Under the pieces are notes generated by a model that was given only the letters and a program-made list of their open reading frames with translations, ran no database searches and was not told the origin of the DNA. Shown piece after piece: positions 8,046 through 23,593 of a stretch of 64,000 nucleotides of DNA; position 1 is the stretch's first letter; the number at the start of each line of letters is the position of its first letter. The stretch comes from an uncultured candidatus Porisulfidus sp. (GTDB taxonomy: Bacteria; Pseudomonadota; Gammaproteobacteria; Poriferisulfidales; Poriferisulfidaceae): positions 352,001 through 416,000 of the forward strand of contig OZ241993.1 of assembly GCA_965204575.1 (NCBI GenBank), read 5' to 3'. Made by a program: the position numbers and the translations under genes.

Positions 8046-10139
8046 TCAGTCTTGCAGGCGAGAGAAATCCGCGATTCCCAGAAACAGATCCTGTAGACCC
8101 CGCAAAAGACGCAGGCGATTATGACGTATTTTTTGATCTTCCGCCATCACCAGCACTTCGTCGAAGAAGGCCGAGACCGGCTCGGCCAATGCGGCAAGCG
8201 CGCCCAGCGCTTCTCCGTAGGCGCCTGCCGCGCAATTTTTCAGCACTTCCTCGCGTACCGCGACAAGCCGGTCCGCGAGTGTACGCTCGGCGGGCTCCGT
8301 CAACAGTTCGGGGTTGACCTCGGCATCGTTTACGTCGGCTTCGCGCAGGATGTTCCGAATTCGCTTGTGTGTCGCAACCAGCACTTTCGCCTGCGGCGAG
8401 TCCCGGAAATCCTCGACTGCCCGCACCCGCCCGAAAGCATCCAGCGGTCGGGCCGACCCGACCGCCAGAACCGCCTCGATGGCGTCTCTGGATTGCCCTC
8501 GCTCGGCTCCGTACCCGTACATCCGGTCAGCCAGATAACCCCACACCGCCTGCGGAATACCGTCGGCATGAAAGGATTCCGGGTACTCCTTGACTGCCTG
8601 CGCCAGGCAATCCTCCAAGTCCAGATCCAAACCGCATTCCACCACCAGGCGCAGAACACCGTAAGCGGCGCGCCGTACGCCCAGCGGATCCCGGGTCCCG
8701 GTCGGGATTTCGCCTATCGAAAAGACCCCGGCCAGCATGTCCAGCCGGTCGGCCAAGGCCAGCACCTGGCCCGGCAAAGTTTCCGGCAGCGCATCATCCG
8801 CGTACCGTGGTCGGTAGTGGTCTGAAACAGCTCGGCAGACGGCATCCCCCTCCTCTTCAATCCGGGCGTAGTACGCGCCCATGACTCCCTGGAGCTTGGG
8901 AAATGATTGCACGATGTCCGTGCCCAGATCCGCCTTGCACAAATGTGCTGCACGACAGACGGTTTTCACATCCGCATCCGCTTTTCGGGCCACGTATTCC
9001 GCTAGTTCCTCAATGCGCTGAACGCGCTCAAGCAACGTGCCCAGTTTTCGATGGAAAACCACCCGGCCCAAGTCCTCCACACGAGAGCCGAACGACTTCA
9101 AGCGGTCACGCTCAAGATAAAAGGCGGCATCCTGAAGCCGGGAACGCACCACCCGCTCGCAGCCCACTCTAATGTCTCCATTCACGTCCGGAAGATTGGC
9201 GACGGCAAAGAAATGCCGGGACAATACGCCGTCCGGCCCCCGAGTCGAAAAATACTGCTGCTGATCCTCCAGCACCGCCCGAATGACTTCCTCCGGCAAA
9301 TCCAGGAATTCTTCATCGAAGCGTCCCGCAACCACTACTGGAAATTCCGCACTGGCACACACTTCCTCAAGCAGGGACTCCGGTCGAATCGCTGATACCT
9401 TGAACTCGGCCTCGAATTCCTCGATTTGCGACAAAACCTCCTGCTTACGTGCCGCTGCCTCTACCAGTACGTGACCCTGCTCCTTCAGAGCATTCTCGTA
9501 AGCTCCCGCATCCCCCAGTTCGACACTTTGTTCGCCAAGAAAGCGGTGGCCCCGCGTGACTGCGCCACAGGGGGTGTTCATGATTTCTCCAGCAATTGGC
9601 TCGCCACCGTACAGCAATGCCACCCATCGGACAGGGCGAAGAAAGCTCGTCTCTTCCGTTCCCCAGCGCATGCGTTTCTCCAATGGCAGCCCCGCCAAGG
9701 CCCGGTCGAAAATCTCCGGGAGCAGTTCCCGGCAATCACGGGGCTCGACCACTTCGTCAAACTTGAGCCATTCTCCCTTGTCCGTCTTCAGGCGGTCCTC
9801 TCCGGCTTTCCAACGTTGCATTTGTTCTGAATCGGCTTGGCATCCCTTGGCAAAACCCAGTAGTGCCCGGGTGGGTTCGCCTTCCGAGTCGAAAGCGGCT
9901 TCCACCGAGGGGCCTTTACGCATTTCGGTGGCGCCCGCCGTCCGTTCCGCCACGCCCGGAATCCGTAATGCCAAGCGCCTTGACGATGCATACGCTGTCA
10001 CGGCCTGGTCGAACGGGAGACTCACACTCTCCAGTTCGGCAACCACTGCAGCCACCAAGGACTCCCTGAGGGCCTCCAGAGAACGGGGTGGGAGTTCTTC
10101 CGTGCCGAGTTCGAACAGCACGGCTCTGGCTTCGGTCAT
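8046..10139 (-). CDS. glyS: Glycine-tRNA ligase beta subunit
   Basis: ELGTEELPP, KRMRWG...FLRPVRW, FPKLQGVMG, PTGTRDPLGVRRAA, FFDEVLVM. Confidence 0.97.
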   Translation of the reverse strand: MTEARAVLFELGTEELPPRSLEALRESLVAAVVAELESVSLPFDQAVTAYASSRRLALRIPGVAERTAGATEMRKGPSVEAAFDSEGEPTRALLGFAKGCQADSEQMQRWKAGEDRLKTDKGEWLKFDEVVEPRDCRELLPEIFDRALAGLPLEKRMRWGTEETSFLRPVRWVALLYGGEPIAGEIMNTPCGAVTRGHRFLGEQSVELGDAGAYENALKEQGHVLVEAAARKQEVLSQIEEFEAEFKVSAIRPESLLEEVCASAEFPVVVAGRFDEEFLDLPEEVIRAVLEDQQQYFSTRGPDGVLSRHFFAVANLPDVNGDIRVGCERVVRSRLQDAAFYLERDRLKSFGSRVEDLGRVVFHRKLGTLLERVQRIEELAEYVARKADADVKTVCRAAHLCKADLGTDIVQSFPKLQGVMGAYYARIEEEGDAVCRAVSDHYRPRYADDALPETLPGQVLALADRLDMLAGVFSIGEIPTGTRDPLGVRRAAYGVLRLVVECGLDLDLEDCLAQAVKEYPESFHADGIPQAVWGYLADRMYGYGAERGQSRDAIEAVLAVGSARPLDAFGRVRAVEDFRDSPQAKVLVATHKRIRNILREADVNDAEVNPELLTEPAERTLADRLVAVREEVLKNCAAGAYGEALGALAALAEPVSAFFDEVLVMAEDQKIRHNRLRLLRGLQDLFLGIADFSRLQD

Positions 10140-10145
10140 TGGGCC

Positions 10146-10290
10146 TTATACACAATAGTCCGCAAGCAGACTCTGTATATCCATTGACAGATCTCCGGGG
10201 TCACTTGAAAGAGTCGCGCCCGAAGGTCCGGCCCTAACAGAGGCGAACGCCCCTCCCTGTCCAGCCGCGCCAGTCCCCAGCGCCAATATG
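10146..10290 (-). ncRNA. Putative omegaRNA scaffold overlapping the tnpB 3' end
   Basis: Terminal stem TATACA..AGTC/GACT..TGTATA and a GACAG/CTGTC pairing; same layout as the second tnpB element; TnpB omegaRNAs are known to overlap the gene end. Confidence 0.6.
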
Positions 10291-11459
10291 TTGAATGCGG
10301 CATTAATGTCCGCATTCCTCACGTATCCGCATGATACGCATTCGAATTTGGCTTGAATCAGACGGCTTGCCTTCGCCACATGACCACATCGATGGCAACG
10401 CTGGCTAGTATAGGCGGGGTTCACCGCCTGCACCCGGCATGCCTTGTATTCCAGTATCCAGCGCAACCGACCCCACCCGCTAGCCGCGATCTCTCGGTTT
10501 AGAGCCGACTTTGCCATCACATGCTTGCCCGGCTTCTCCACCGTGCCCTTGGCCGACTTCATCAGGTTCTTGATGTCCAAGTCTTCTAGGCAGACCGTTC
10601 CAAAACGCTCTGTTAGGTCATGGCTAAGTTGGTGCCTCCAATTGTCACGAATATTAGCGATCTTTCGGTACAACTTCGCCACGGTTCGCTGTTCCCTCTC
10701 GCGACGTCTTGAATTTACTTTGATAATGTCTCCTTTCCGAGTTCGCCTCGGGGCTCCGTCCGCATCTATTAGCGGCACCCGCTGGCGGCGGCTCATCTTA
10801 CGCTTATGCCGCTTTAGCTTGGTTTCAAGGACGGAGACGTCAGGCATAAAAATTTGTTCGTGTTCCGTGGTTGCCACGTTCCATTTACCCTTGTCCAAAC
10901 CGACGGCCTTGCCGTTATCCTCCGGTTCCATGTCCGGAATCTCCCAGAAAACTGACACGTACCACTTCCCGTTCGGACGTTTCGTCACCACCGCCTGCTT
11001 GGCCTTGCCGTATGCCCACGGACCGCCACCCCGGCGGCTGATCGGCATCCAGCCAACCTTCGGAACACACAACCGGCCATTCTGAACCCGTACGTTCTGC
11101 GGAATGGTAAACGAATCACCATCTTCTTTGTGCTTAAACCGAGGAAAACCACGCTTACCTTTCCTTGCCTCTTTTATGGCATCCGCATACCGCTTCAGTA
11201 CGTACCGAACCTCATGGAATGGCAGTTCTTTCAGCCATTCATGGTCTGCGCTGTTGCGCAGTTTCGTGAATTCCAGACCCAGATTGAAAAAAGTGGGCGA
11301 TGGCTTTTCACCCTTGCCCTCTTCGTAGGCTTTCATTGCGTCCCGATTCTGTCCGACCGCCCAGTTCCAGATGTAGCGGTTCGCCCCCGCGATGCCGGAT
11401 AGCCTCTGCGCCCGGCGTAAGGTGCCCGGATACAGGCGATAGACTGACGAGCGAATCAT
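10146..11459 (-). CDS. tnpB: TnpB RNA-guided endonuclease (IS200/IS605 family)
   Basis: YRLYP N-terminus; RuvC D (VGLDKG), E (CLEDL), D (NADINAA); zinc finger CHRC...CVSC; ATG at 11459 inferred. Confidence 0.93.
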   Translation of the reverse strand: MIRSSVYRLYPGTLRRAQRLSGIAGANRYIWNWAVGQNRDAMKAYEEGKGEKPSPTFFNLGLEFTKLRNSADHEWLKELPFHEVRYVLKRYADAIKEARKGKRGFPRFKHKEDGDSFTIPQNVRVQNGRLCVPKVGWMPISRRGGGPWAYGKAKQAVVTKRPNGKWYVSVFWEIPDMEPEDNGKAVGLDKGKWNVATTEHEQIFMPDVSVLETKLKRHKRKMSRRQRVPLIDADGAPRRTRKGDIIKVNSRRREREQRTVAKLYRKIANIRDNWRHQLSHDLTERFGTVCLEDLDIKNLMKSAKGTVEKPGKHVMAKSALNREIAASGWGRLRWILEYKACRVQAVNPAYTSQRCHRCGHVAKASRLIQAKFECVSCGYVRNADINAAFNILALGTGAAGQGGAFASVRAGPSGATLSSDPGDLSMDIQSLLADYCV

Positions 11460-11565
11460 GAGTGGATTTTGCCATGCCGAAAGCCAGTTCGGCCCAAGTA
11501 AAGATAAATCATTAAATATGAAAGAACTTTCATGGGTAATGTGGGCTATTGGATATACCCCCCAG

Positions 11566-12447
11566 TTATTCCGCACCCAAGGGGAAATTCAGGGCTTCGC
11601 GCGAAGCGTAGTAGGCTTCTGCGATTTTCTGCGCCCGGCCACGGATGCGCAAAATGTACTTCTGGCGTTCCGTGACGGAAATCGCATGCCGCGCGTCCAA
11701 TAGGTTGAAGAGATGCGAGCACCAGACCAGTTGCTCGTAGGCCGGCAATGGAAGATTCTCTTCGATCAGCCGGTCACATTCCTCCTCTATCTCGTCGAAC
11801 TGGCGAGACAGTTTCTCCGTGTCGGCTTGTTCGAAATTGTAAGCCGATTGTTCGACTTCATTCTGGTGGAATAGCTGCCCGTATGAGATTTCAGCAGCCT
11901 CCTCGCCACCCCAAACCAAGTCGAAGACGCTGTCCGTTTCCTGCAGGAACATCGCAATCCGTTCTATGCCATAGGTCAATTCGCCGAGCGTCGGACGGCA
12001 TTCCAGCCCTCCTGCCTGCTGAAAATACGTGAACTGGCTGATTTCCATGCCATTGAGTTGCACTTCCCAGCCTAGGCCCCACGCCCCTAGCGTCGGGGAT
12101 TCCCAGTCGTCTTCCACAAAGCGGACATCATTCTTGTCCAGAGCGATGCCGAGTTCCTCCAAAGATTGCAGGTACAGATCCTGGATATCGTCCGGCGAGG
12201 GTTTGAGCGCGGCTTGGAACTGATAATAACGCTGAAGGCGGTTCGGGTTTTCTCCGTAACGCCCGTCCGTCGGGCGCCGACACGGTTGCGCGAACGCACA
12301 CCGCCATGGTTCCGGGCCGATTGCCCGCAGAAAAGTTTCCGGGTGGAAGGTTGCTGCGCCGATTGGCAGGTCATGCGCAGGCAGGATCACGCAGCCCTGC
12401 GCCGCCCAAAATTCTTCCAGTCGACGTATGAGGTTCTGTACAGTCAT
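11566..12447 (-). CDS. glyQ: Glycine-tRNA ligase alpha subunit
   Basis: [49 protein letters not shown]. Confidence 0.98.
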
Positions 12448-12464
12448 GGGCTTGACGGTTCGAT

Positions 12465-15400
12465 TCAGGAAAACCGGCTGCGGATAAATTCTTGAGTATC
12501 TGCCAAAGAGAGTTTAACAGTCGTCGGACCGTTGCGCACAAAAAAATCCCCTCCCTCTGCCGTCTCAATTCCCTTCCAATCAAGAAAGACGGGGTCAGGG
12601 CTCCGACGGCAACTCACCATGCAGACACTTTTGCCATCCACGATCTGTACTTTAGGGTCTATGCAAGTTCCGGCACGCGGGCCGAGACTATTTTGTACGC
12701 ATTGCATCAGATGGCGCATGAATTTATCGTCGTTCTCAAGTTGATCCTTTTCAATACCGACGATGGAGCCATCATCGGCGACTCCAATCAAGAGATCGCC
12801 ACCTTCGGTATTCAAAAAAGCTGCAATCGTCTTCAGCGCAGCATGAGTTACACCTTTATCATCCTTACGGTCTTCCTTCAAGTTCCAGCGCAGTGTCGAT
12901 TTGAATTCCAGAGTCTGGGATTCTCCCTGCTCGATTAATTCTTTCGCGCTACGCCGACCGCGAAGGTATTGGTCGAAGAGGTAGTTTTTTACCGCATCTC
13001 CAAAGATTTGATCGTCGGTGATTCGCTTGTACAGGTCGAAATTGGAGTCGACGATATCCTCAATAGCTTCTTCAACTTTTCGATCAAAAGCCAAGCGTAC
13101 ATTTTCTCGCGTGCTCACACGAGCGGAAGCGTCAAGGGCCACGTCCCCTTCCAACCTTTCCATCATCTGGCCGAGAGTGGCACAGTGTTCGGAACCCAAT
13201 TCCGTGCCGAAGCGTTCGTTCAGTTCGAAGATGATCTTCGACAGCATTTCCAGTTCTTCGGGCATAGGGCCATACGGTTCCTCATCGGTGACAGGATCCA
13301 ATCTCCCTGGCCCCCGGTCTAGTTCAATAGCGCCGCTCCCCGTCTCCCGGACCCGATAGGATTCCATATCAATATGCTGCCGTACGTCGAAAGGAAGATC
13401 ATCCCGATCGATGGGCAGCAACGGACACAAACACCGTGCAAAAACATAGAGCTTCTCTAGATCGGGATCGGCGAAAGTCAGTACTTGTGCAAGAAATGCG
13501 TAAAGCCGTATGTAACGAGTCAGTTCTTTCCGGAATTTGTCTTGTTCGTCTTCATCAAGTTCGCAAAAGCGATCTACTGAAGGTGCCAATGCAGCATAAA
13601 GCTGGTCTTGGGTGGGCTGGAGCCCAAAATAAATCTTGGAAAAAGCGTCAATATCTGCGGATGCGTAGACCGGATAGTTGCCAAGGCGCGTTTGCACTTG
13701 GTACAGGAGGTTGGGATCGGTCTCCTCCGATAGCAAAGTTGTTTCGTAATAGGGGTCGAAAGCGGCCTTGATTTCGTCGGCCTCGTTGGCGAAGTCGAGT
13801 ACTAGAGTTTCTGTCTTACCAGGATGGGTACGGTTGAGCCGGGAAAGTGTCTGCACAGCATTCACGCCGCCAAGTTTCTTATCGACGTACATCGTATGGA
13901 GAAGCGGCTGGTCAAACCCGGTCTGGAATTTGTTCGCGACGATCAAGAAACGATACTCCGGCGTATCGAATGTCCCAGCAGTCTGTGCTTCCGACTGTCC
14001 GTTCATGCCGGACTCCGTGTAGGACTGGCCACCGTCCCCAACTGTGCCTGAAAAAGCAACCAAGGCTTTGAAGGGATGGCCCTGCTCGGCGAGATGGCGG
14101 TCCATGGCCAACTTGTAGCGCACCGCGTGCAGGCGTGAACGGGTGACGATCATCGCCTTTGCCTGATTTCTGATCTTATCCTGTACCTGACCCATGAAGT
14201 GCTCGACCATGATGCGTACTTTCGTGTCAATAGCATGCGGATGGAGATCAACATAGGATTTCAGAAGACAGGCGGCTTTCTTTTTGTCATAGCGCGGATC
14301 GCTTTCGACCGTTTTCCAGAGTCGCCAGTAAGCCTTGCAAGTTGCGTAATTTGACAGGACATCCAAGATGAAGCCCTCCTCAATGGCTTGACGCATGGTG
14401 TAGTCGTGGAATGGCTTGAATGTGCCATCTGCATGCTTTGTCCCGAACAATTCCAGTGTCTTGGCCTTGGGGGTCGCTGTGAAAGCGAAGATTGAGAGAT
14501 TGGATTGCCGACCGCGACTCTGTATCTCGGCCAGAATAGTGTTTTCCAATTCTTCTTCCGGGGTTTCCGCCTGAATCTCTTCTTTTTCGGCCTCTTCCAG
14601 CGAGGCTGATGAAAGCGTTGCCTTCAGGCTTTTGCTCGACTCGCCCGACTGCGAAGAATGAGCCTCATCAATGATTAGGGCAAACCGCTTTCCCTGCAGG
14701 TCACCAACTTCAGCAGAAATGACCGGGAATTTCTGAAGCGTGGTGACAATGATTGTCTTGCCGGATTCAAGCGCGTCCTTGAGTTGGCGCGAAGTGGTAT
14801 TAATGTTCTCTACCACACCCAATGTTTGCTCGAACTGCCGTATGTTTTCCTGAAGCTGACGGTCCAGTACGCGGCGGTCGGTAATTACGATGATGGAATC
14901 GAAAATGCGTCGGTCGTCGGCACCATGTAGCGAAGACAATTGATGGGCCAACCAAGCAATGGTGAAACTCTTGCCGCTACCGGCCGAATGCTGGATTAGG
15001 TAGTGTTGCCCCGCCCCATTTTCGTGGGCATCGCATACGAGACGGCGCACGCAATCAAGTTGCTGGTAGCGAGGAAAAATCAGGATTTGCCTGCCAACTA
15101 TTCCTCCATTGCCGTTTTTCTTCTTGAGTTGGTGGATGAATCGTTGGATCAAGTCCAGCACACTGTCGCGTGACCAAGTCTCTTGCCAGAGATAGGCAGT
15201 AGCGTAGCCAGTTTGGGTCGGAGGCACGGGAGGATTCCCGGCCCCGCCGTATTTGCCTTGATTAAAAGGCAGGAAACGTGTTTTGTTCTTGTTCAGACGG
15301 GTCGTGACGTAGACCAAGTACGGGTCAACCGCGAAATGCGCGAGACACCGGCCACTGGCGAACAAGGGTTCCCGCGGGTCACGATCCTTTCTGTATTGCC

Positions 15401-15932
15401 GGATCGCATCCTTAACGGTCTGCCCGGTCAGTGGATTCTTGAGTTCGGCAGTAAAGATTGGAATGCCGTTCAGAAATAGTACTAGGTCCAGACTGTTCTC
15501 ATTCTTGACGCTGTATCGCAACTGGCGCACTACCGAAAATAGGTTTGCTCTGTAGAGACGTTGAGTTTCCTCGTTGAGCCCGCTCGCCGGGCGGAAGTAG
15601 GCCAACCAGAACTGGCATCCCATATCTTTTACGCCATGCCGCAGAACATCAAGTGTGCCGCGTCTCTTGATCTCGCCCGCCAAACGTTCCAGAAACCGCT
15701 CTTCAACTTCTATGCCGTAACGTTGCGAGAGCTTTTCCCATTCCTCGGCCTGGGTTGCTTTCAAGAAGCCCAAGGCATCGTCGCGTAGGAGACATGATTC
15801 TCGGTCGTAATCCTCTGGATGCCGTTTGTGATAACCACCGGGTCTCATTTCCTGACCATTATCAGAACCATCTTGAATCAAGGCCGCCTCAATCGCACCC
15901 TCGAAAGCGCGCTCAGAAACAACTATGTTCAT
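12465..15932 (-). CDS. hsdR: Type I restriction subunit R with a C-terminal Schlafen/AlbA_2 domain
   Basis: [15 protein letters not shown] nuclease motif, QHSAGSGKS Walker [18 protein letters not shown]; last ~160 aa contain GESQTLEFK...[20 protein letters not shown]...FFVRNG. Confidence 0.93.
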
Positions 15933-15971
15933 GGTGTGATACGGGGAATCTGCGCTGGTCGACTTGGCGCT

Positions 15972-17369
15972 TTACGCAGTAGAGACAGAGGTTTGTCGAA
16001 TGTCTATTTTACCGGTCACGGCGGCGGAAATGAGCGCAGAACGTAATTCTTTCTGTAGTTTTACGACCTGATGAATTTTGGCAATAAGACCATCGATTTT
16101 TGCTATCTCGCAGTCGAGAAAAGCCATAATTTCTCTTTGTTCGCGATAAGGTGGAATAGAAATACTCATATTTGCATATCGCTCTGCGCTTACATTTTGG
16201 ATTGTAGTTTGAATACAACTGCTGAGAAGCCAAAGTTTGTAAGCTCGGGATTGAGTAAAGTAGTCAATAAAAGCTGGTTCTGTTTCCTCATTGAATCGTG
16301 CACGAATAAGATATCCGGCAAATGCCGCCCTACCCCAACTTGAGTCATACCGAAAAGTCATACCAATAGAACCACTCCGAGCAAACAACATGTCACCTGG
16401 AACAAGTAGGTAGGGGTGGGCAAGATTCTCTGGAATAGATTTGAAACTGTCATCTCTCAGTGTCCCATTTTCCTGAATATCTGTAATTCGAATGTAGCGA
16501 GGAAAATCAGGATTGGTGCAATCTGCGGGTTCGTTGGCCCCATACTTCAGAGCTTCTGCAAGCAATCTCTTCAATCGCTTCACCTCCCAATGCTCTGGAA
16601 TCTCGCCTAGCCATTCAATGCCGGAATCTTTCATCGGGACATTGGGATCAAGACCCTTGGTGACAGCATGGCTAATAAGGGCAACACGCCTTTCTTGAAG
16701 CAGATCAATCAATCGCTCCTGCTTTTCAACTAGCATGTCGATTTTTACTGTCTCGCGATCTAGAAAAGTAGTGATGGCTCGTTGTTCGGGTAGCGGAGGC
16801 AAAGCTATTGCCATTCCTTCGATAATTTTGCCGCTAAGATTTGCTAGACCAGTTGTCGTGCCCGCTAGATAGTCAAGATATCTACGCCTCCCATTAAAAA
16901 AACGCCAAAGAAACCGTGGAAATGTATTTTCCTTGACACGAAGTCGCTGCATAAAGTTTGAAAAGCAACAATCCAAGTCTGCCACTTCTTCCGAAACAAT
17001 TGTTGTCTTCCCTATATGCAAAGCAGAGCCACTTGACGTTGTAATCAACAGGTCACCTTCTTCAAGGCGATAGGATGCATGCTCCAATGCTGTAAGTCTT
17101 CTTTTTGCAGGTGTTGAAATATCCCATTCTCCGCTAACCGTCTGTTCAGTCGAACGAAGGACGATCACACCCTCATCATCAAAATCGCTTCCCCATACAC
17201 CACTATCATTTTCTAACAATAACCGTTTTATGCGCGTAACTGCCCAATGCGTCGGAATCTCCCCTAACCACTCAATACCGGAATCCTTATACGCCGGATA
17301 CGGTACATAGCCCCTCTCGTTCAAAGGAGGTTCAGAATGATCCGTCCGAGCACTATTAGACTGATGCAT
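15972..17369 (-). CDS. hsdS: Type I restriction specificity subunit
   Basis: Two repeats of KDSGIEWLGEIP.HW, PPLPEQ and PPYREQ, ALISAAVTGKID; lower GC in the target-recognition domains. Confidence 0.95.
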   Translation of the reverse strand: MHQSNSARTDHSEPPLNERGYVPYPAYKDSGIEWLGEIPTHWAVTRIKRLLLENDSGVWGSDFDDEGVIVLRSTEQTVSGEWDISTPAKRRLTALEHASYRLEEGDLLITTSSGSALHIGKTTIVSEEVADLDCCFSNFMQRLRVKENTFPRFLWRFFNGRRRYLDYLAGTTTGLANLSGKIIEGMAIALPPLPEQRAITTFLDRETVKIDMLVEKQERLIDLLQERRVALISHAVTKGLDPNVPMKDSGIEWLGEIPEHWEVKRLKRLLAEALKYGANEPADCTNPDFPRYIRITDIQENGTLRDDSFKSIPENLAHPYLLVPGDMLFARSGSIGMTFRYDSSWGRAAFAGYLIRARFNEETEPAFIDYFTQSRAYKLWLLSSCIQTTIQNVSAERYANMSISIPPYREQREIMAFLDCEIAKIDGLIAKIHQVVKLQKELRSALISAAVTGKIDIRQTSVSTA

Positions 17370-17446
17370 TATTCATTCGGCTAGAAGCCAGAACCATCCA
17401 CAGACATTCCAACCCCGCACACAGAACACCAAACAGCAGGGTCTAG

Positions 17447-17995
17447 CTATATGTTCGGCGATGGAGGATAGGGTGGTGGAGTTTGATGCAGCCGGACTTG
17501 AATGGGGGTTCTCCCATGCAATACGTCTATAAGACCACGGCGTGCGAGTTGTTGCTCCCATTCGGCATCAGCCCACCCTTGTGGAACGTAATTCCCCCTG
17601 AGGATTTCGAGTTGCGCGATCTTGATTCCCAGTACCTTTGCCATTTCATCAATCAGCGTGGTCAAGAGCGTATTACGCTTTTGTATAGCTCGGTCATATT
17701 GGGCTTTCTCTTCTATAGGCGGCAATTCCTCACCCAAATGCGCCAAGTACTCTTTCCAAGAAGATACTACGCGTGGGCAGTCCCTGAATTCAAGCTCTAC
17801 GAGATTTAATGCTCCGACGTGCTCAGGGCTGATTTGCATGCTTCTCGTCTGCATTAGCGTGCGAAAAACATCTAGCTTGCGTTGCTTGTCGGCACGGATC
17901 TTGTCTAGACATTGAGACGCCATAATGGCAGCGACCGGACCCAACAGAATTGCTGCGATGGTAATCCATGGTAGCCAGGACGCAGTAGCGGTCAT
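17447..17995 (-). CDS. DUF6680-like protein with an N-terminal TM helix
   Basis: AILLGPVAA...KLDVFRTLMQTR...HVGALNLVELEF...YVPQGW pattern recalled for this family. Confidence 0.6.
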   Translation of the reverse strand: MTATASWLPWITIAAILLGPVAAIMASQCLDKIRADKQRKLDVFRTLMQTRSMQISPEHVGALNLVELEFRDCPRVVSSWKEYLAHLGEELPPIEEKAQYDRAIQKRNTLLTTLIDEMAKVLGIKIAQLEILRGNYVPQGWADAEWEQQLARRGLIDVLHGRTPIQVRLHQTPPPYPPSPNI

Positions 17996-18333
17996 AAAGC
18001 ATCCCGCAATTTTTTGAATATTACGTTAACCGGGCCTGTCGGAGTCCGGATGCCGATTGAATTTCCACGACCGAAATTTCGCGGCAGTGTCGCAGTGATT
18101 TTTTGCATTAAATCATCCCCTTTCTCGACTAACTTTCCCGTAACCAGCCAAGTTCCAGGGAGAGATTTCAACGTCACGGAAATATCGACATTGCCATCTT
18201 CGGCAGCCTCGTAAGTTCCGTCCAAAAGCCCTCCTACAGCATCTGCCCCAGCGATGATGCCATCTTTCATGGTGAGTACGGCATGGCCGGAGCCTGCTGT
18301 CCCTGTGTAGTACATTGCATAAATGCCATCCAT
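17992..18333 (-). CDS. GrlR-like beta-barrel protein
   Basis: MDGIYAMYY...GSGHAVL...DGIIAGAD...GTY resembles the GrlR family N-terminus; the ORF could extend to 18417. Confidence 0.55.
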   Translation of the reverse strand: MDGIYAMYYTGTAGSGHAVLTMKDGIIAGADAVGGLLDGTYEAAEDGNVDISVTLKSLPGTWLVTGKLVEKGDDLMQKITATLPRNFGRGNSIGIRTPTGPVNVIFKKLRDAL

Positions 18334-18395
18334 GATTGTGTTCCGGTTGCATGCGGTAGAAAAATTGTAGCCCAAATCCATTGTCTTAACATCCT

Positions 18396-19022
18396 TCACC
18401 GAAGTGCGTCTACCCATCCGAATGCATCAATGTAGGGAGAAATAATCGTCCGCACCCGACAGACTTCGGCGGCACGTTCGATCTCGTCCACCGATACGAC
18501 CCGGTAACGAATGGCTTCGTACAGTGCCTCCAGCGCGACATCGAGACCACATTTCCTGCGGTAACGGAAACAGTCGACAATCGTCCGGGCTGGCGAGGTG
18601 ATGCGGAAAGGCACGCCTTGCGCCACGCGGCGCTCCACTCCGTATGTCAGCATCGCACCTGAAAACCGGACGATGCGGGACTGAACCGGAGGATTGCGCG
18701 GTATCCGGGCCTTTCGATCTATGGCAAACCATATTCGATGCGGCGACTGAGTGCCGATTTCATGAATTGAAAGCGCCGACATCAGGCATATGATCGCATT
18801 GGGAATCGCCGCTGAAAGCATGGCATAGGATTCAAGTTCCAGAGCCTTGACCTCGGAGTCGGGAAACCGGTAAAGACCTCGTCCATATTTCTCGACGAAT
18901 CCCTCGGACACCAGACTCCCGAGCCGTCTGGGATGAATCCCGAGCGATGCGGCATCCCGGGCACGAAAAAAGGCTCCTAGGTCTGCGCTCCGCAGCGTCT
19001 GAAAATCGGTCATGCTGGACAT
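18396..19022 (-). CDS. AbiEi-family (type IV TA) antitoxin / transcriptional regulator
   Basis: GRGLYR winged helix, ICLMSALSIHEIGTQSP, TSPARTIVDCFRYRRKCGLDVALEAL. Confidence 0.88.
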   Translation of the reverse strand: MSSMTDFQTLRSADLGAFFRARDAASLGIHPRRLGSLVSEGFVEKYGRGLYRFPDSEVKALELESYAMLSAAIPNAIICLMSALSIHEIGTQSPHRIWFAIDRKARIPRNPPVQSRIVRFSGAMLTYGVERRVAQGVPFRITSPARTIVDCFRYRRKCGLDVALEALYEAIRYRVVSVDEIERAAEVCRVRTIISPYIDAFGWVDALR

Positions 19023-19030
19023 GACGCAAT

Positions 19031-19074
19031 TATATACTGTTTAAAATGTCGGCATTTATTTTTAAGTGTATATA
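19031..19074. promoter_or_regulatory. Inverted repeat upstream of abiEi, probable operator
   Basis: AAATG-TCGG-CATTT (19044-19057) nested inside TATATAC...GTATATA; AbiEi proteins autoregulate through inverted repeats. Confidence 0.55.
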
Positions 19075-19075
19075 T

Positions 19076-21226
19076 TTAAATTTCAGAATCCAGCGTCGCC
19101 AACATCTCCATGATTTCCTGCTCCGTGGCCTTGATGTCAGCCTGAATCTCAGTAAGGGCGCGAGGCTGGGCATGCCGGTAGAAATACCGGTTGAAATTGA
19201 TCTCGTAGCCAACCACCCCCACCATGCCGTCTTTCGAGTCACGTTTCGACAAATCGATCCAGGCATCGGGCACATGGGGTACCACTTCGCAAGCAAAGAA
19301 CTCTCGCACGCTCGTCGGGATTCCATTTTCGTCTACGGAATCCCCTCCCTCAGGAAGCGGCACACGCTCGGTATCGCGCAAATCAGGATCGGGCTCCGGG
19401 CTACCTCCCACATTGCGACACATTTCGGCCGTCTCGTCGCGTTCGCCGAGCGCTGAAAGAATTGCTTTTTTCACAACTGCCGTCAGTTTCAAACCAGCCT
19501 CGCCAGCCTCGGCGTCCAACACCTCTAGAAACGCCTCTCGGTCCTTGTACATCGTGCCGCCCAGCGATTCGAGCAGATTCAGGATCTTCTGTTGCCGTTC
19601 GCGCCCCTGAGTCTCTTCCTCCTCTTTGGCCTTTCCGCGTCTTTTCGATTTCGCCAGATTCTGGAAACCTTTCTGCTCCTCCAGACGAGCAATGCGCTCC
19701 GGACTTGCCTCGAAATTGAGCCGCAGCGGACGCTCCACTGTAATCTTCCGATACCCGAATTCCGTAATCGGGAAAACACGGCTGACAACCTGCTCTTCGA
19801 TCTTTCCATCCGCCTCGACTTCGCGCATCTCGCCATCCCGGAATCTCTTGACGAGATTCAGCACATCCCACGCTTTTTCGTATGGAATTTCGCGCCGCTT
19901 TTCGCCCAAGCTCTTCGGCATGGGCGTCCAGAAGGTGGTGGCGTCGATGAACAGCACCTTGCCCTCACGTTTCGGTTTCTTGCGATTGGTCAACAGCCAG
20001 ATGTAAGTCGCGATACCCGTGTTGTAGAAAAGCTGCTCCGGCAACGCGATTAGCGCTTCCAGTAAATCGTTCTCCATCACAAACCGCCGGATCTCGCTCT
20101 CCCCATTTCCGGCATCTCCCGTAAATAGCGGGGAACCATTCATGATGATCGCAATGCGCGCCCCCCCCTCACTCGGTGTACGAGCCCGCTTGAGCATATG
20201 CAGGAGAAAGAGCGTTTGTCCATCGCTGATACGCGGCAGGCCCACACCAAAACGTCCGGATTCTCCCCTTGCATGCTCACTTTGCACTGCATGCTCGTCA
20301 CTCCTCCAATTCTTTCCGTAGGGAGGATTAGCGATCAGGTAATCGAAAGTTTGGTCCGCGTGCCGGTCATGGGAAAGCGTACTGCCAAAAACAATGTTGC
20401 CGGCGTCGCGCCCCTCCGGATCATTCATGAAAAAATCTGACCTTGAGATGGCCCAGGTCTCCGGATTCACTTCCTGACCAAACAGGTGGATATCGGCATT
20501 GGAATTGAGCGGGCGCTTTACTTGCCGACCGTTTTCCCGCACCCCTTGGGTAATATGCTCTTTGGCGATCATCAGCATCCCGCCAGATCCGCAGCAGGGG
20601 TCATAGATGGTCTGGATGGCGCCTTCCCGGCTGAGATGCTTCTCATCACCGGCCAGCATAAGATCCACCATCAAGTGAACAACGTCGCGCGGAGTAAAAT
20701 GTTCTCCGGGATTCTCATCCAACGCTTCGTTGAATTTGCGAATCAGTTCTTCAAAAATCATTCCCATGGTCGGGTTGTCCACCCGTTTAGGGTGCAGGTC
20801 GACAGTACCAAACCGTTCCAGGACCTGAAACAGCAAACCCGCCTCGTCGAGCTTGCTGATCGTGTTGTCGAAGTCAAAGCGTGCGATGACTTCGCGCATA
20901 TTCTCGCTGAAGCCCGCGATGTAGTTCCGGAGATTCTCGGCAATGTTCTGTGGGTCACCGAGCAAACGCTCGAAATCGTACTGGGATGTGTTGTAGAACA
21001 CGAATCCGGATGCCTTGCGCAGTTGTCCACCCGGCTTTCGAAGCCCTCTTTTCCTCATCTCAGCATTCCGTTTCAGGACTTTTTTCTTGGTTGGAGCCAA
21101 AACACAGTCAAGCCGCCGCAGGACGGTTAGCGGCAAGATGACATCTTGATATTTCCCGCGCTTGAAATTATCGCGGATGAGGTCGGCCACACCCCAGAGA
21201 AAACTGACGATCTCGCTATGATTCAT
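19076..21226 (-). CDS. hsdM: Type I restriction methyltransferase subunit
   Basis: GEHFTPRDVV, YDPCCGSGGML (SAM binding), ANPPY, GYEINFNRYFY. Confidence 0.96.
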   Translation of the reverse strand: MNHSEIVSFLWGVADLIRDNFKRGKYQDVILPLTVLRRLDCVLAPTKKKVLKRNAEMRKRGLRKPGGQLRKASGFVFYNTSQYDFERLLGDPQNIAENLRNYIAGFSENMREVIARFDFDNTISKLDEAGLLFQVLERFGTVDLHPKRVDNPTMGMIFEELIRKFNEALDENPGEHFTPRDVVHLMVDLMLAGDEKHLSREGAIQTIYDPCCGSGGMLMIAKEHITQGVRENGRQVKRPLNSNADIHLFGQEVNPETWAISRSDFFMNDPEGRDAGNIVFGSTLSHDRHADQTFDYLIANPPYGKNWRSDEHAVQSEHARGESGRFGVGLPRISDGQTLFLLHMLKRARTPSEGGARIAIIMNGSPLFTGDAGNGESEIRRFVMENDLLEALIALPEQLFYNTGIATYIWLLTNRKKPKREGKVLFIDATTFWTPMPKSLGEKRREIPYEKAWDVLNLVKRFRDGEMREVEADGKIEEQVVSRVFPITEFGYRKITVERPLRLNFEASPERIARLEEQKGFQNLAKSKRRGKAKEEEETQGRERQQKILNLLESLGGTMYKDREAFLEVLDAEAGEAGLKLTAVVKKAILSALGERDETAEMCRNVGGSPEPDPDLRDTERVPLPEGGDSVDENGIPTSVREFFACEVVPHVPDAWIDLSKRDSKDGMVGVVGYEINFNRYFYRHAQPRALTEIQADIKATEQEIMEMLATLDSEI

Positions 21227-21324
21227 GGCAATGAATGTTACGCAGCGATTGGTTATTGTAATGAGCCCAGACTGGCTGCAAGCGAAACGTCCCCGGAATG
21301 CGCTCGCAGGCAGCCAAATATCAC

Positions 21325-22512
21325 TTATCCCGCCACATCGAAAATCTTGCGGTGTTCCGCAAGAATGTGCCGATCGCTCAAGCTCGCGATGTAGTCGGCG
21401 ATCACCCGAGCCTGACCCTCCTCACCGCGGGTCTTTTTCTTCTCACGGGCCCGTTGATGCAATTCCGTCGGCAGCAACTGCGGGCGATCCATGAACGCAC
21501 GGAATAACTCCCGAATGACACCAACCGCCTTGTTGGAGGCCCGCACCAAACGGTAGTGGCAGTAATACTTCTCGTGCAGCAGCCGCGTCACCGGTGCAAG
21601 TTCAGCACGCAACTCGTCGCTGAATCCAGCCAATCGATCGGGACAGGCGCGGACGGCCTGCGGCGAGTCCGGTTGCGCCTGCTCAATCCGCTTTTTGGTG
21701 GCAAGGATCAGGTCGACCATCATGGCCGTAATCATGCGCCGGTTGGCTTCATGCAGCAAAGCATGCCAAGACAACTTCGGCGAGGCTTTCTGCGCCTCGT
21801 CATAGGCGCGGGAAAACAGCGCCAATTCGCGCACTTCCTCAAGGTCCAGGAAACCCAGTCGCAAGCCATCGTCCAGATCATGGTTGGTATACGCGATCGG
21901 ATCGGCCAAATCCACCAACTGCGCCTCCAGGGTCGGCGACTCGCCCTTCAGAAAACGCTCTCCCAGCGGGCCCAGGGTTTTGGCGATCTCTTTCGGGCAG
22001 CGCTTCAGCACTCCTTCACGTGTCTCAAAACTCAGGTTGAGGCCGCGAAAGTCGGCGTATTTGTATTCCAGTTTGTCGATCACGCGCAGCGATTGCAGGT
22101 TGTGCTCGAATCCCCCATACTCTTTCATGCAGTCGTCCAGCGCATCTTGCCCGGCATGCCCGAATGGCGTGTGACCCAGGTCGTGGGCCAATGCAATCGA
22201 TTCGGACAGGTCTTCATTGAGGCGCAGGGCCCGCGCCAACGTGCGCGACAGCTTGGCCACTTCGATGCTGTGCGTCAGTCGGGTGCGAAAAGATCCATCC
22301 GCATGATTCACCATGACCTGGGTCTTGTACTCCAGGCTACGGAAAGCGGCCGAGTGAATGATCCGGTCGCAATCACGCTGGTACAGCGTCCTGAATTCGT
22401 CCGGAGGCTCTGCATGCTGCCGCCCAAGCGAATTGGATTCGCTGGCTGCGTAAGGGGCAAACCCGGCCCGGTCCGACCCACCGCCCCGCGCTTCCAGCAA
22501 ATCGACTGCCAC
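21325..22512 (-). CDS. dgt: Deoxyguanosinetriphosphate triphosphohydrolase
   Basis: RTRLTHSIEV, AHDLGHTPFGHAG, FEHNLQSLR, HDLDDG. Confidence 0.93.
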   Translation of the reverse strand: MAVDLLEARGGGSDRAGFAPYAASESNSLGRQHAEPPDEFRTLYQRDCDRIIHSAAFRSLEYKTQVMVNHADGSFRTRLTHSIEVAKLSRTLARALRLNEDLSESIALAHDLGHTPFGHAGQDALDDCMKEYGGFEHNLQSLRVIDKLEYKYADFRGLNLSFETREGVLKRCPKEIAKTLGPLGERFLKGESPTLEAQLVDLADPIAYTNHDLDDGLRLGFLDLEEVRELALFSRAYDEAQKASPKLSWHALLHEANRRMITAMMVDLILATKKRIEQAQPDSPQAVRACPDRLAGFSDELRAELAPVTRLLHEKYYCHYRLVRASNKAVGVIRELFRAFMDRPQLLPTELHQRAREKKKTRGEEGQARVIADYIASLSDRHILAEHRKIFDVAG

Positions 22513-22516
22513 GGGT

Positions 22517-23593
22517 TCAGCGCACTCCTGCCAATGTGGCCGACAATAGCCGTTCGTCCACCTGGTCGGTCACTTCCGCCTGCCCGATCGCCCGCATCAG
22601 GATGAAACGCTGTTGTCCTCCGACATTCTTCTTGTCGTGCCGCATATGGGCGCGCAATTGATCGGCCCCCAGGTCTTCCGGCAGCCGGGTCGGCAGCCCT
22701 GCACGGTCGACCAGCGCCTGTATCCGCTCTGCCGCCTGAACTTCGAGCCAGCCCATCCGAACCGACAGGTCGGCGGCAAGCACCAGGCCGCAGGCCACCG
22801 CTTCGCCATGACACCACTGCGCATAGCCCTGCTCAGTCTCGATCGCATGCGCAAAAGTGTGGCCCAAGTTCAACAAGGCGCGGGCACCGGTACGTTCCCG
22901 CTCGTCGGCAGCCACGATCCGCGCCTTGCTGGCGCAGGACGTCTTGATCGCATGCGTCAAGGCTTCCGTCTCCAATGCCAAGACTTCCTCAAGGTGGTCT
23001 TCCAGCCACTCGAAAAATTCCGCATCGTCAATCAAGCCGTATTTGATGACTTCGGCCACGCCCGCCCGCATTTCGCGGGGCGGCAGACTGCGAAGTGTTG
23101 CCGGATCGATCAATACCGCCTTCGGTTGCCAGAATGCGCCGATCATGTTCTTGCCGAGCGGATGGTTGACGCCGGTCTTGCCGCCGACCGAGGCATCCAC
23201 CTGCGCCAGCAACGTCGTCGGAACCTGCACAAAATCCACGCCACGCATGTAGGTGGCGGCAGCAAATCCGGTCATGTCGCCGACCACGCCTCCCCCGACC
23301 GCGATGAAAATCGCGCCACGCCCGAGCTCCTGTTCCAGAAGCCAGGTATAAAGCCCGTTCAGGTCTTCCAGCGTCTTGTGTTGCTCCCCGTCCGGCAGCA
23401 CGTAGCATCCACGGCAAGTCGGGCCCAGGGCCTGCGCGAGAGGCCGGGCATACAGATCTTCCACCCCTGGATGCGTGACCAGCACGACGTCGGACCCCAC
23501 CAGAGGAGCCCAGTGTGCCGGATCTTCAAGCAATCCTTCACCGATCAGGATCGGGTACGAGGCGCCCTTCAGGGCAACAGTCAATTCATCCAC
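22517..23593 (-). CDS. aroB: 3-dehydroquinate synthase
   Basis: GGGVVGDMTGFAAATYMRG, PTTLLAQVDASVGGKTG, LNLGHTFAHAIE. Confidence 0.97.
   Translation of the reverse strand: MDELTVALKGASYPILIGEGLLEDPAHWAPLVGSDVVLVTHPGVEDLYARPLAQALGPTCRGCYVLPDGEQHKTLEDLNGLYTWLLEQELGRGAIFIAVGGGVVGDMTGFAAATYMRGVDFVQVPTTLLAQVDASVGGKTGVNHPLGKNMIGAFWQPKAVLIDPATLRSLPPREMRAGVAEVIKYGLIDDAEFFEWLEDHLEEVLALETEALTHAIKTSCASKARIVAADERERTGARALLNLGHTFAHAIETEQGYAQWCHGEAVACGLVLAADLSVRMGWLEVQAAERIQALVDRAGLPTRLPEDLGADQLRAHMRHDKKNVGGQQRFILMRAIGQAEVTDQVDERLLSATLAGVR

Follow-up and report, generated by a model that had tools for sequence, protein, structure and literature searches.

What does a Schlafen domain do at the end of a type I restriction subunit? 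The window analyzed here, a 64,000-nucleotide stretch from an uncultured candidatus Porisulfidus sp. (contig OZ241993.1, positions 352,001 to 416,000, forward strand), raises this question at positions 12465..15932 of its minus strand, where one uninterrupted open reading frame (ORF) of 1155 amino acids (aa) runs from an ATG start to a stop codon at 12465-12467. In this gene, hsdR::slfn, the R subunit of a type I restriction-modification (R-M) enzyme continues in frame into a Schlafen/AlbA_2 domain. We find that both halves of the fusion are intact and that the same fusion recurs in many phyla. On balance, the evidence argues for a restriction-coupled ribonuclease (RNase) effector, a reading that we favor with modest confidence.

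The HsdR part of the fusion is intact. PADLOC assigned the gene to REase_I (E 2.5e-33), and Pfam placed HSDR_N at residues 128-216 (E 2.5e-16) and, with scores above their cut-offs, SWI2_SNF2 and ResIII at 287-444 and a T1R_D3-like domain at 661-714. The N-terminal PD-(D/E)xK nuclease domain (residues 128-216; 15285..15551, minus strand) retains D149, E163, and K165, which are kept in 167, 166, and 167 of 167 full-length homologues, the alignment to which the conservation counts below also refer. The SF2 translocase motor (residues 287-730; 13743..15074, minus strand) carries the Walker A motif GSGKS at G318-S322 (160-167 of 167), DEAH at 422-425 (167 of 167), and SF2 motifs III and VI as TATP at 485-488 (166 of 167) and QTLSRLNR at 694-701 (166-167 of 167), and its fold matches that of EcoR124I HsdR. 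It is followed by the HsdR helical C-terminal region and a conserved helical connector (residues 740-1001; 12930..13715, minus strand), which were delimited from secondary structure, residue conservation, and the end points of the short forms described below. The NCBIfam family TIGR00348 (hsdR) matched with E 5.5e-60 but, at 203.6 bits, fell short of its curated cut-off of 284.55. A sequence search of the whole protein against the PDB returned only five entries, all of them EcoR124-type HsdR (2w00, 4be7, 4beb, 4bec, and 4xjx). The full-length AlphaFold model had a mean predicted local distance difference test (pLDDT) score of 71.4 and a predicted template modeling (pTM) score of 0.53, with low confidence at 843-910 and 994-1025; its best structural matches were EcoR124I HsdR chains (E 5.5e-22 to 2.1e-20). 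The partner genes hsdM and hsdS lie on the same strand in the same operon.

By profile, fold, and catalytic residues, the tail is a real Schlafen/AlbA_2 domain. SLFN_AlbA_2 (PF04326) matched residues 1004-1141 (12510-12923) with E 1.4e-19, well outside what chance would give. The 71.1 bits exceed the cut-off of 25.3, and the match covers profile positions 1-117 of 118. With its C-terminal helix, which extends to residue 1155, the nuclease module occupies 12468..12923 on the minus strand. Homology with one non-HsdR Schlafen protein starts at residue 954; thus, the helical lead-in is part of the module. Each chain holds one PF04326 stretch by Pfam, a single lobe. An AlphaFold2 model of residues 985-1155, built with 70 relatives, reached pLDDT 96.0 and pTM 0.91. 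When this model was compared with the PDB by Foldseek, all 23 matches at E<=0.001 were AlbA_2, Schlafen, or SAMD9 structures (DIP2311, the SAMD9 tRNase domain, a RecG-related N-domain, and SLFN5, 11, 12, 13, and 14). VIA-align gave the same picture: the best 20 entries were all Schlafen, SAMD9, or AlbA_2 (Z 15.0-6.5), the next, unrelated entry scored Z 5.5, and the aligned part of the eukaryotic Schlafens was residues ~165-350, their catalytic C-lobe. A PDB sequence search with the tail yielded 13 matches at E<=1, every one a Schlafen.

The residues expected of an active nuclease are in place. The motif E1004-x4-E1009-x-K1011 (ESQTLEFK; 12900..12923, minus strand) aligns with ESQSIEFK of pig SLFN11, and in the PDB sequence match, a second 12-residue stretch of the tail aligns with GGYLLFGVDDES of rat SLFN13. 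In rat SLFN13, E205, E210, and D248 are reported to be needed for cleavage, and an E249A mutant behaved like other non-critical mutants (PMC5862951). This alignment, together with the mutant data, makes E1004, E1009, and D1053 (12774..12776, minus strand) the counterparts of E205, E210, and D248. Among the full-length homologues, E1004 is kept in 164, E1009 in 165, and K1011 and D1053 in all 167, while the SAFAN-like AAFLN at 1037-1041 is kept in 165-167. The initial annotation, made from the letters of the sequence, had claimed a complete HsdR with nuclease, Walker A, and DEAH motifs, extra in-frame C-terminal residues at about 12465-12955, an E-x4-E-x-K motif with a downstream Asp, and equivalence of these acidic residues to the SLFN11/SLFN13 site. 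All of this holds, the tail resolving into the domain at 12510-12923 within a module that reaches the last codon at 12468. The strings that it quoted are all present in the translation, including GESQTLEFK from residue 1003 and FFVRNG, and the AlbA_2 profile and SLFN structure searches that it proposed both gave matches.

The fusion recurs widely. When residues 960-1155 were searched, 2262 candidates were scored and 1703 of them matched at E<=0.001; the 120 matches listed all combined PF04326 with HsdR-type domains at 74-92% identity. With residues 1-960 as the query, 100 of the 120 matches listed (71-94% identity) carried PF04326 and 20 had none; two of these 20 were truncated fused forms, and the other 18 end at about residue 994-1002, exactly where the Schlafen domain starts. 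A survey with one genome per species found 337 stretches encoding a relative, 80 of which, at 73-86% identity, were kept for locus analysis. By their record titles, these 80 come from Gammaproteobacteria, Gemmatimonadota, Acidobacteriota, Binatia, Thermodesulfobacteriota, Planctomycetota, Myxococcota, Nitrospirota, Latescibacterota, Spirochaetota, Cyanobacteria, and others. The HsdR core lies directly upstream of the domain in 80 of 80 loci, and the best core match abuts the domain in 76. Junction residues 985-1003 are conserved among homologues. The initial annotation had asked how often the fusion recurs in HsdR homologues. Since the domain is confirmed and the fusion is widespread, neither of the two computational outcomes that it had named as counting against it, a tail unlike AlbA_2 or a one-off read-through, was observed.

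Per genome, the fusion is rare in the sample from the same class. An HsdR match at E<=1e-100 was found in 43 of 400 genomes (a tally that includes the unpublished genomes G079, G334, and G346), and it reached into the Schlafen part in only two of the 43, the genome of the window itself and G153. Within the genus, 3 of 15 other genomes carry the fusion. In G153, the fused gene (L090; G153:C6:77102-82678) matches in two frames, query residues 5-848 and 839-1154, which is either a frameshift or an assembly error. There is no evidence for carriage of the fusion by plasmids or phages in the collections searched: a tblastn search with the C-terminal 195 aa found 19 plasmid records, all below 60% identity, with no R-subunit annotation in the 15 of them that were listed, and the same query found one weak record, at 26% identity, in the phage collection.

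How long have the two parts been together? We compared 189 HsdR cores, a sample that is the union of two biased searches and in which some short forms may be broken genes. The Schlafen domain was present in 166, partial in 4, and absent from 19. On a midpoint-rooted tree, the forms without the domain are scattered, with one well-supported clade of nine; Fitch parsimony gave eight changes with the domain at the root, a pattern that reads as repeated loss among close relatives. Mean identity to the query was 0.796 in the Schlafen region, 0.78-0.79 in the motor, and 0.62-0.66 in the N-terminal and helical regions. The pairwise distance was 0.165 for the Schlafen domain versus 0.185 for the core, and the two sets of distances correlated with r 0.585, a value reached by 0 of 300 permutations. 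Because domain and core distances track each other, the Schlafen domain has traveled with the enzyme.

These observations bear on function through what is known of bacterial Schlafens. Two 2026 papers established them as phage-triggered tRNases (PMC13056530 and PMC13462974), described as Mn-dependent enzymes that are joined to sensors and become active in response to phage cues (PMC13056530), and all prokaryotic Schlafens characterized in these two reports and in a preprint (10.64898/2026.05.29.728809) cleave tRNA. By analogy, we read hsdR::slfn, with somewhat better than even confidence, as a restriction-coupled RNase effector. HsdR, with its PD-ExK nuclease and SF2 translocase, would restrict unmethylated DNA in the usual way together with HsdM and HsdS. 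The Schlafen module would serve as an additional effector, an endoribonuclease that depends on metal and probably acts on tRNA. It would stay silent while the complex is at rest, and a change in the state of the complex would switch it on, halting translation and with it phage growth. The RNase activity, the tRNA substrate, and the trigger are here modeled on published work. The setting agrees with a role in defense: Taboada et al. (2026) count prokaryotic Schlafens as defense-associated when they lie <=10 kb from defense genes and are fused to another domain, and here the module is fused to HsdR within a type I R-M operon that also contains abiEi.

What might the switch be? The favored possibility is that two HsdR tails are brought together, as could happen when motors that move along foreign DNA stall or run into each other. 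We favor it because there is one lobe per chain here, because type I enzymes contain two HsdR subunits per complex (PMC2602864), and because characterized Schlafens work as pairs or oligomers of lobes. The three characterized prokaryotic systems are all reported to be oligomeric. One is a hexamer, another a dodecamer that turns into a filament, and the last a tetramer with a dimer that rebuilds the two-lobed unit. The second of these is CbCash, in which an inactive dodecamer becomes an active filament (PMC13462974), and the third is SLFN-pAgo (preprint 10.64898/2026.05.29.728809). In its specific form, the proposal is that the restriction motor is the sensor, that each tail is half a Schlafen unit, and that motors driven by ATP along unmethylated DNA assemble the tRNase when they stall or collide; put this precisely, it is unlikely. 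If it holds, one event would trigger both DNA restriction and translation shut-off, which would explain why many bacterial Schlafens adjoin restriction systems. It would also provide a bacterial counterpart, on a different motor family, of human SLFN11, the tRNase of which is activated when single-stranded DNA (ssDNA) binds its helicase domain (PMC13056530).

Several points weigh against an RNase effector. (i) As 19 of 189 close HsdR homologues have no Schlafen domain, the R-M enzyme can do without it. (ii) AlbA_2 domains can bind DNA, and the fold matches include a SAMD9 entry labeled "_DBD with DNA" and a SLFN5 entry labeled "DNA binding." (iii) The top fold match, DIP2311, has no known function. 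(iv) The full-length model is of moderate quality and weak at 994-1025, and it is uninformative on gating or on the packing of the module. (v) In the experiments of Taboada et al., only two of seven Schlafen systems defended E. coli (PMC13056530).

There are four other ways to read the fusion. The first is a guard in the manner of PrrC, as the initial annotation had suggested: the intact R-M complex would silence the Schlafen RNase, and a phage anti-restriction protein, either a DNA mimic such as Ocr or ArdA or a Stp-like peptide, would release it and thereby shut off translation. The module is at the HsdR C-terminus, and in EcoR124I this region of HsdR contacts the methyltransferase core. The fold matches include EcoR124I-Ocr and EcoR124I-ArdA complexes, and a guard would draw on the same signs of an active nuclease (profile, fold, and catalytic residues). 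The precedent is PrrC itself, which a linked type I enzyme keeps silent and an anti-restriction factor of the phage activates (PMC2610378 and PMC3458546). We nevertheless regard a guard as unlikely. No sequence feature indicates sensing of an inhibitor, and the speculation in print on R-M-linked Schlafens concerns the sensing of DNA-cleavage structures, not of inhibitors (PMC13462974). A single-lobed Schlafen needs a partner lobe, and it is not obvious how binding of an inhibitor would provide one. We also considered and rejected membership in the PrrC family, since neither the ORF nor the genes between hsdM and hsdR encode an ABC ATPase or a PrrC-type anticodon-nuclease domain; for the same reason, the comparison with PrrC is an analogy only. 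Nor can one tell from the sequence whether the trigger would be that of a guard or would come from an enzyme that is engaged, has stalled, or collides, or whether the tail instead plays a role in the DNA reaction.

Such a role in the DNA reaction is the second alternative, and we consider it decidedly unlikely. The tail would be an auxiliary module that holds or cuts DNA, ssDNA, or RNA:DNA hybrids during translocation and so improves restriction. Among the structures of similar fold are DNA-bound SAMD9 and SLFN5-N ("ssRNA cleaving and DNA binding"), some members are named "putative DNA binding domain-containing protein" in NCBI records, and the closest Schlafen domains elsewhere are fused to DNA enzymes (N6_N4 methylase, SNF2 helicase, and GmrSD_N). 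However, HsdR already has its own conserved DNA nuclease, and the three near-invariant acidic residues argue for catalysis over binding alone; the tRNA cleavage common to the characterized prokaryotic Schlafens points the same way. The third alternative, a non-functional or regulatory passenger with no effector role, such as a decaying remnant or an RNA-binding autoregulatory tail, would account for the four partial forms and for the roughly eight presence/absence changes that read as repeated loss. We consider it very improbable, since conservation on a par with the ATPase motor across many phyla, with the catalytic residues intact, is unexpected for decay. Finally, a read-through or assembly fusion confined to this genome has nothing in its favor and can be rejected with near certainty, because the same in-frame junction, with its conserved residues, occurs in 80 of 80 loci from different assemblies and phyla and in three congeners.

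The gene belongs to an operon within an inserted island. In minus-strand order, the region holds an HD-domain gene, hsdM, abiEi, orf141, a DUF6680 gene, hsdS, and hsdR::slfn, with glyQ following 17 nucleotides downstream. The HD-domain gene nearly adjoins glyQ in four of the five congeners checked (92-116 bp), which identifies the ~8.9 kb that separate them here (12448..21324, between the glyQ start codon at 12447 and the stop of the HD-domain gene at 21325) as an insertion. The G+C content is 0.46-0.55 in the island versus ~0.61 in its flanks. The methyltransferase subunit hsdM (19076..21226, minus strand; 716 aa) matched N6_Mtase (E 4.9e-57), HsdM_N, and PADLOC MTase_I (E 1e-257) and is an N6-adenine methyltransferase. 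The specificity subunit hsdS (15972..17369, minus strand; 465 aa) contains two target-recognition domains, each a Pfam Methylase_S match (PADLOC Specificity_I, E 5.2e-118). Between them lie the abiEi-like antitoxin/regulator gene (18396..19022, minus strand; 208 aa; AbiEi_4 in Pfam and AbiEi in PADLOC, E 3.8e-60), orf141 (17992..18417, minus strand), and, as cargo within the R-M operon, the DUF6680 gene (17447..17995, minus strand; 182 aa; PF20385, E 2e-49). A scan of 10000-23000 for promoters and terminators found fewer sites than in shuffled sequence (5 versus 9.6 and 12 versus 14.3) and was uninformative.

Two further ORFs were seen in this region. Between glyQ and glyS lies a TnpB ORF (10146-11576, minus strand; NCBIfam guided_TnpB, E 2.3e-71), which encodes an RNA-guided endonuclease of the IS200/IS605 type. 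It shares 11 nucleotides with the 3' end of glyQ and stops 6 nucleotides short of glyS; in five of five congeners checked, glyQ directly abuts glyS without TnpB. A 98-codon ORF at 19030-19326 (minus strand) overlaps the 3' end of hsdM in another frame and has no family match. Its weak tblastn matches fall inside the hsdM genes of relatives, and it is probably not a gene.

The same arrangement is common among relatives. Of the related loci, 48 extend far enough upstream to show the neighboring genes; 42 of these have hsdS, 40 have abiEi, 36 have hsdM, and 35 show the order hsdM-abiEi-hsdS-hsdR. The typical locus reads hsdM-abiEi-abiEii-hsdS-hsdR::slfn, with the gene for the AbiEii nucleotidyltransferase toxin usually following abiEi. 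A congener whose HsdR (64% identity) has no Schlafen domain shows the same order, hsdM-abiEi-abiEii-hsdS-hsdR; thus, the AbiE insert and the Schlafen tail are independent additions. In the window, orf141 stands at the position of abiEii. It had no match in Pfam, NCBIfam, PADLOC, or PHROG, and the idea that it is an AbiEii remnant was rejected, as it has no similarity to AbiEii. Within 17447-19022, the abiEi-like gene thus lacks an AbiEii partner, and in its place stand orf141 and the DUF6680 gene, a pair found in only one of the 80 related loci (L007) and possibly an alternative toxin partner for AbiEi. Across the related loci (L007-L086), variable defense cargo lies in the operon upstream of hsdR, either between abiEi and hsdS or between hsdS and hsdR: Fic/DOC in several loci, an M78 peptidase with DUF4411, GmrSD, an OLD-type ATPase-TOPRIM protein with a UvrD helicase, a Macro domain protein, DUF3644, and an AAA_21 ATPase.

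Beyond HsdR, the Schlafen module belongs to a large family. Searched against one representative per 50% cluster, it had 6574 relatives at E<=0.001, of which 3630 reached E<=1e-10 and 199 reached E<=1e-30. Outside HsdR, its nearest relatives (45-50% identity) likewise sit at the C-terminus, preceded by an unannotated N-terminal region of ~270 aa, an N6_N4 DNA methylase, an SNF2 helicase, or TPR repeats; GmrSD_N is another partner among these closest non-HsdR domains. When metagenomes were scanned with P0257, the Schlafen protein closest to the module outside HsdR, only two short loci came back, with no usable context. The genome of the window (1.82 Mb) has a second Schlafen gene outside the window (L087:5481-7604, minus strand), which encodes a 707-aa protein with an N-terminal GmrSD_N (DUF262) domain and a C-terminal Schlafen/AlbA_2 domain that is 40% identical to the HsdR tail. 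EcoSlfn7, a published system that defends E. coli, is built in the same way (PMC13056530).

The HsdR C-terminus is a site for add-ons other than Schlafen. In one protein of 1329 aa (P0291), the order is HsdR-Schlafen-S24 peptidase, and at another locus (L093:221-3784, minus strand), an HsdR with 47% identity ends in an S24 (LexA/UmuD-like) peptidase in place of the Schlafen domain. The S24 add-ons hint at regulation by self-cleavage.

Why does the fusion matter? It places a presumed sensor and an effector in one well-understood machine. Assays of type I translocation and cleavage in vitro, ATPase and nuclease mutants, and anti-restriction proteins all exist. The natural forms without the domain, which end at a defined point, are a ready-made control. 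Given this tractable machine and these short forms, activation of restriction-linked Schlafens is directly testable in the fusion clade. Should the RNase arm prove real, hundreds of species would have in type I restriction a two-layer defense of DNA cleavage and translation arrest, and restriction failures and the effects of anti-restriction proteins would have to be read differently. The design is widespread and, by analogy with the known systems, may let bacteria stop protein synthesis while restriction of a phage proceeds or fails.

The initial annotation had rated the novelty of the fusion too highly, since Schlafen tRNases and Schlafen fusions to methyltransferases and to HsdS are already in print. 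More than half of defense-linked Schlafens adjoin R-M systems or other nucleases, with their activation left open (PMC13462974), and the same paper describes Schlafen-methyltransferase fusions and neighbors (clusters 3, 4, and 7). A Schlafen-GHKL module fused to HsdS has also been described (preprint 10.64898/2026.05.29.728809). In these cases, as here, the module is attached to or placed beside R-M parts. The main texts of PMC13056530, PMC13462974, and the preprint do not contain the term "HsdR," and we found no mention there of a fusion to the R subunit; their supplements may list one (for example, Supplementary Table 2 of PMC13056530, with 55 architectures, or Supplementary Data 3 of PMC13462974). 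Thus, the Schlafen-R-M link was known, and, as far as these main texts go, the R-subunit fusion is the new part. After the 2026 papers, it is not very surprising, yet it is unusually tractable for the study of how restriction-linked Schlafens are switched.

The closest comparisons are with the characterized prokaryotic systems RorSlfn5 and EcoSlfn7 (PMC13056530), CbCash (PMC13462974), and SLFN-pAgo. Like hsdR::slfn, each has a single-lobed Schlafen domain with Ex4(E/D)xK, is a fusion, and lies in a defense locus. Their partners are Ig-like, DUF262, Csx15, or Argonaute sensors, whereas in hsdR::slfn the domain is joined to a whole restriction R subunit, an effector in its own right. Placement differs as well: the Schlafen domain here, a predicted nuclease, is C-terminal, while the catalytic residues given for RorSlfn5, CbCash, and RzAgo (E15/D20, E17/D22, and D32) imply an N-terminal domain. 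In PrrC/EcoprrI, too, an RNA-cutting abortive arm is tied physically and genetically to a type I enzyme. PrrC, however, is made as its own protein, which combines an ABC ATPase with a nuclease domain unrelated to Schlafen, whereas hsdR::slfn joins the restriction enzyme and the predicted RNase covalently.

EcoR124I HsdR (2w00, 6h2j, and 7bst) has the same order of nuclease, motor, and helical region and is the best whole-protein fold match at a sequence identity of ~16%; at 1038 aa, it lacks the Schlafen domain. Human SLFN11, and likewise SLFN13 and SLFN14, join a Schlafen domain and a nucleic-acid motor in one chain, as here, and the catalytic residues align at an overall identity of ~20%. 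The eukaryotic Schlafens have two lobes per chain and a C-terminal SF1-type helicase, whereas hsdR::slfn encodes one lobe at the C-terminus of an SF2 HsdR translocase.

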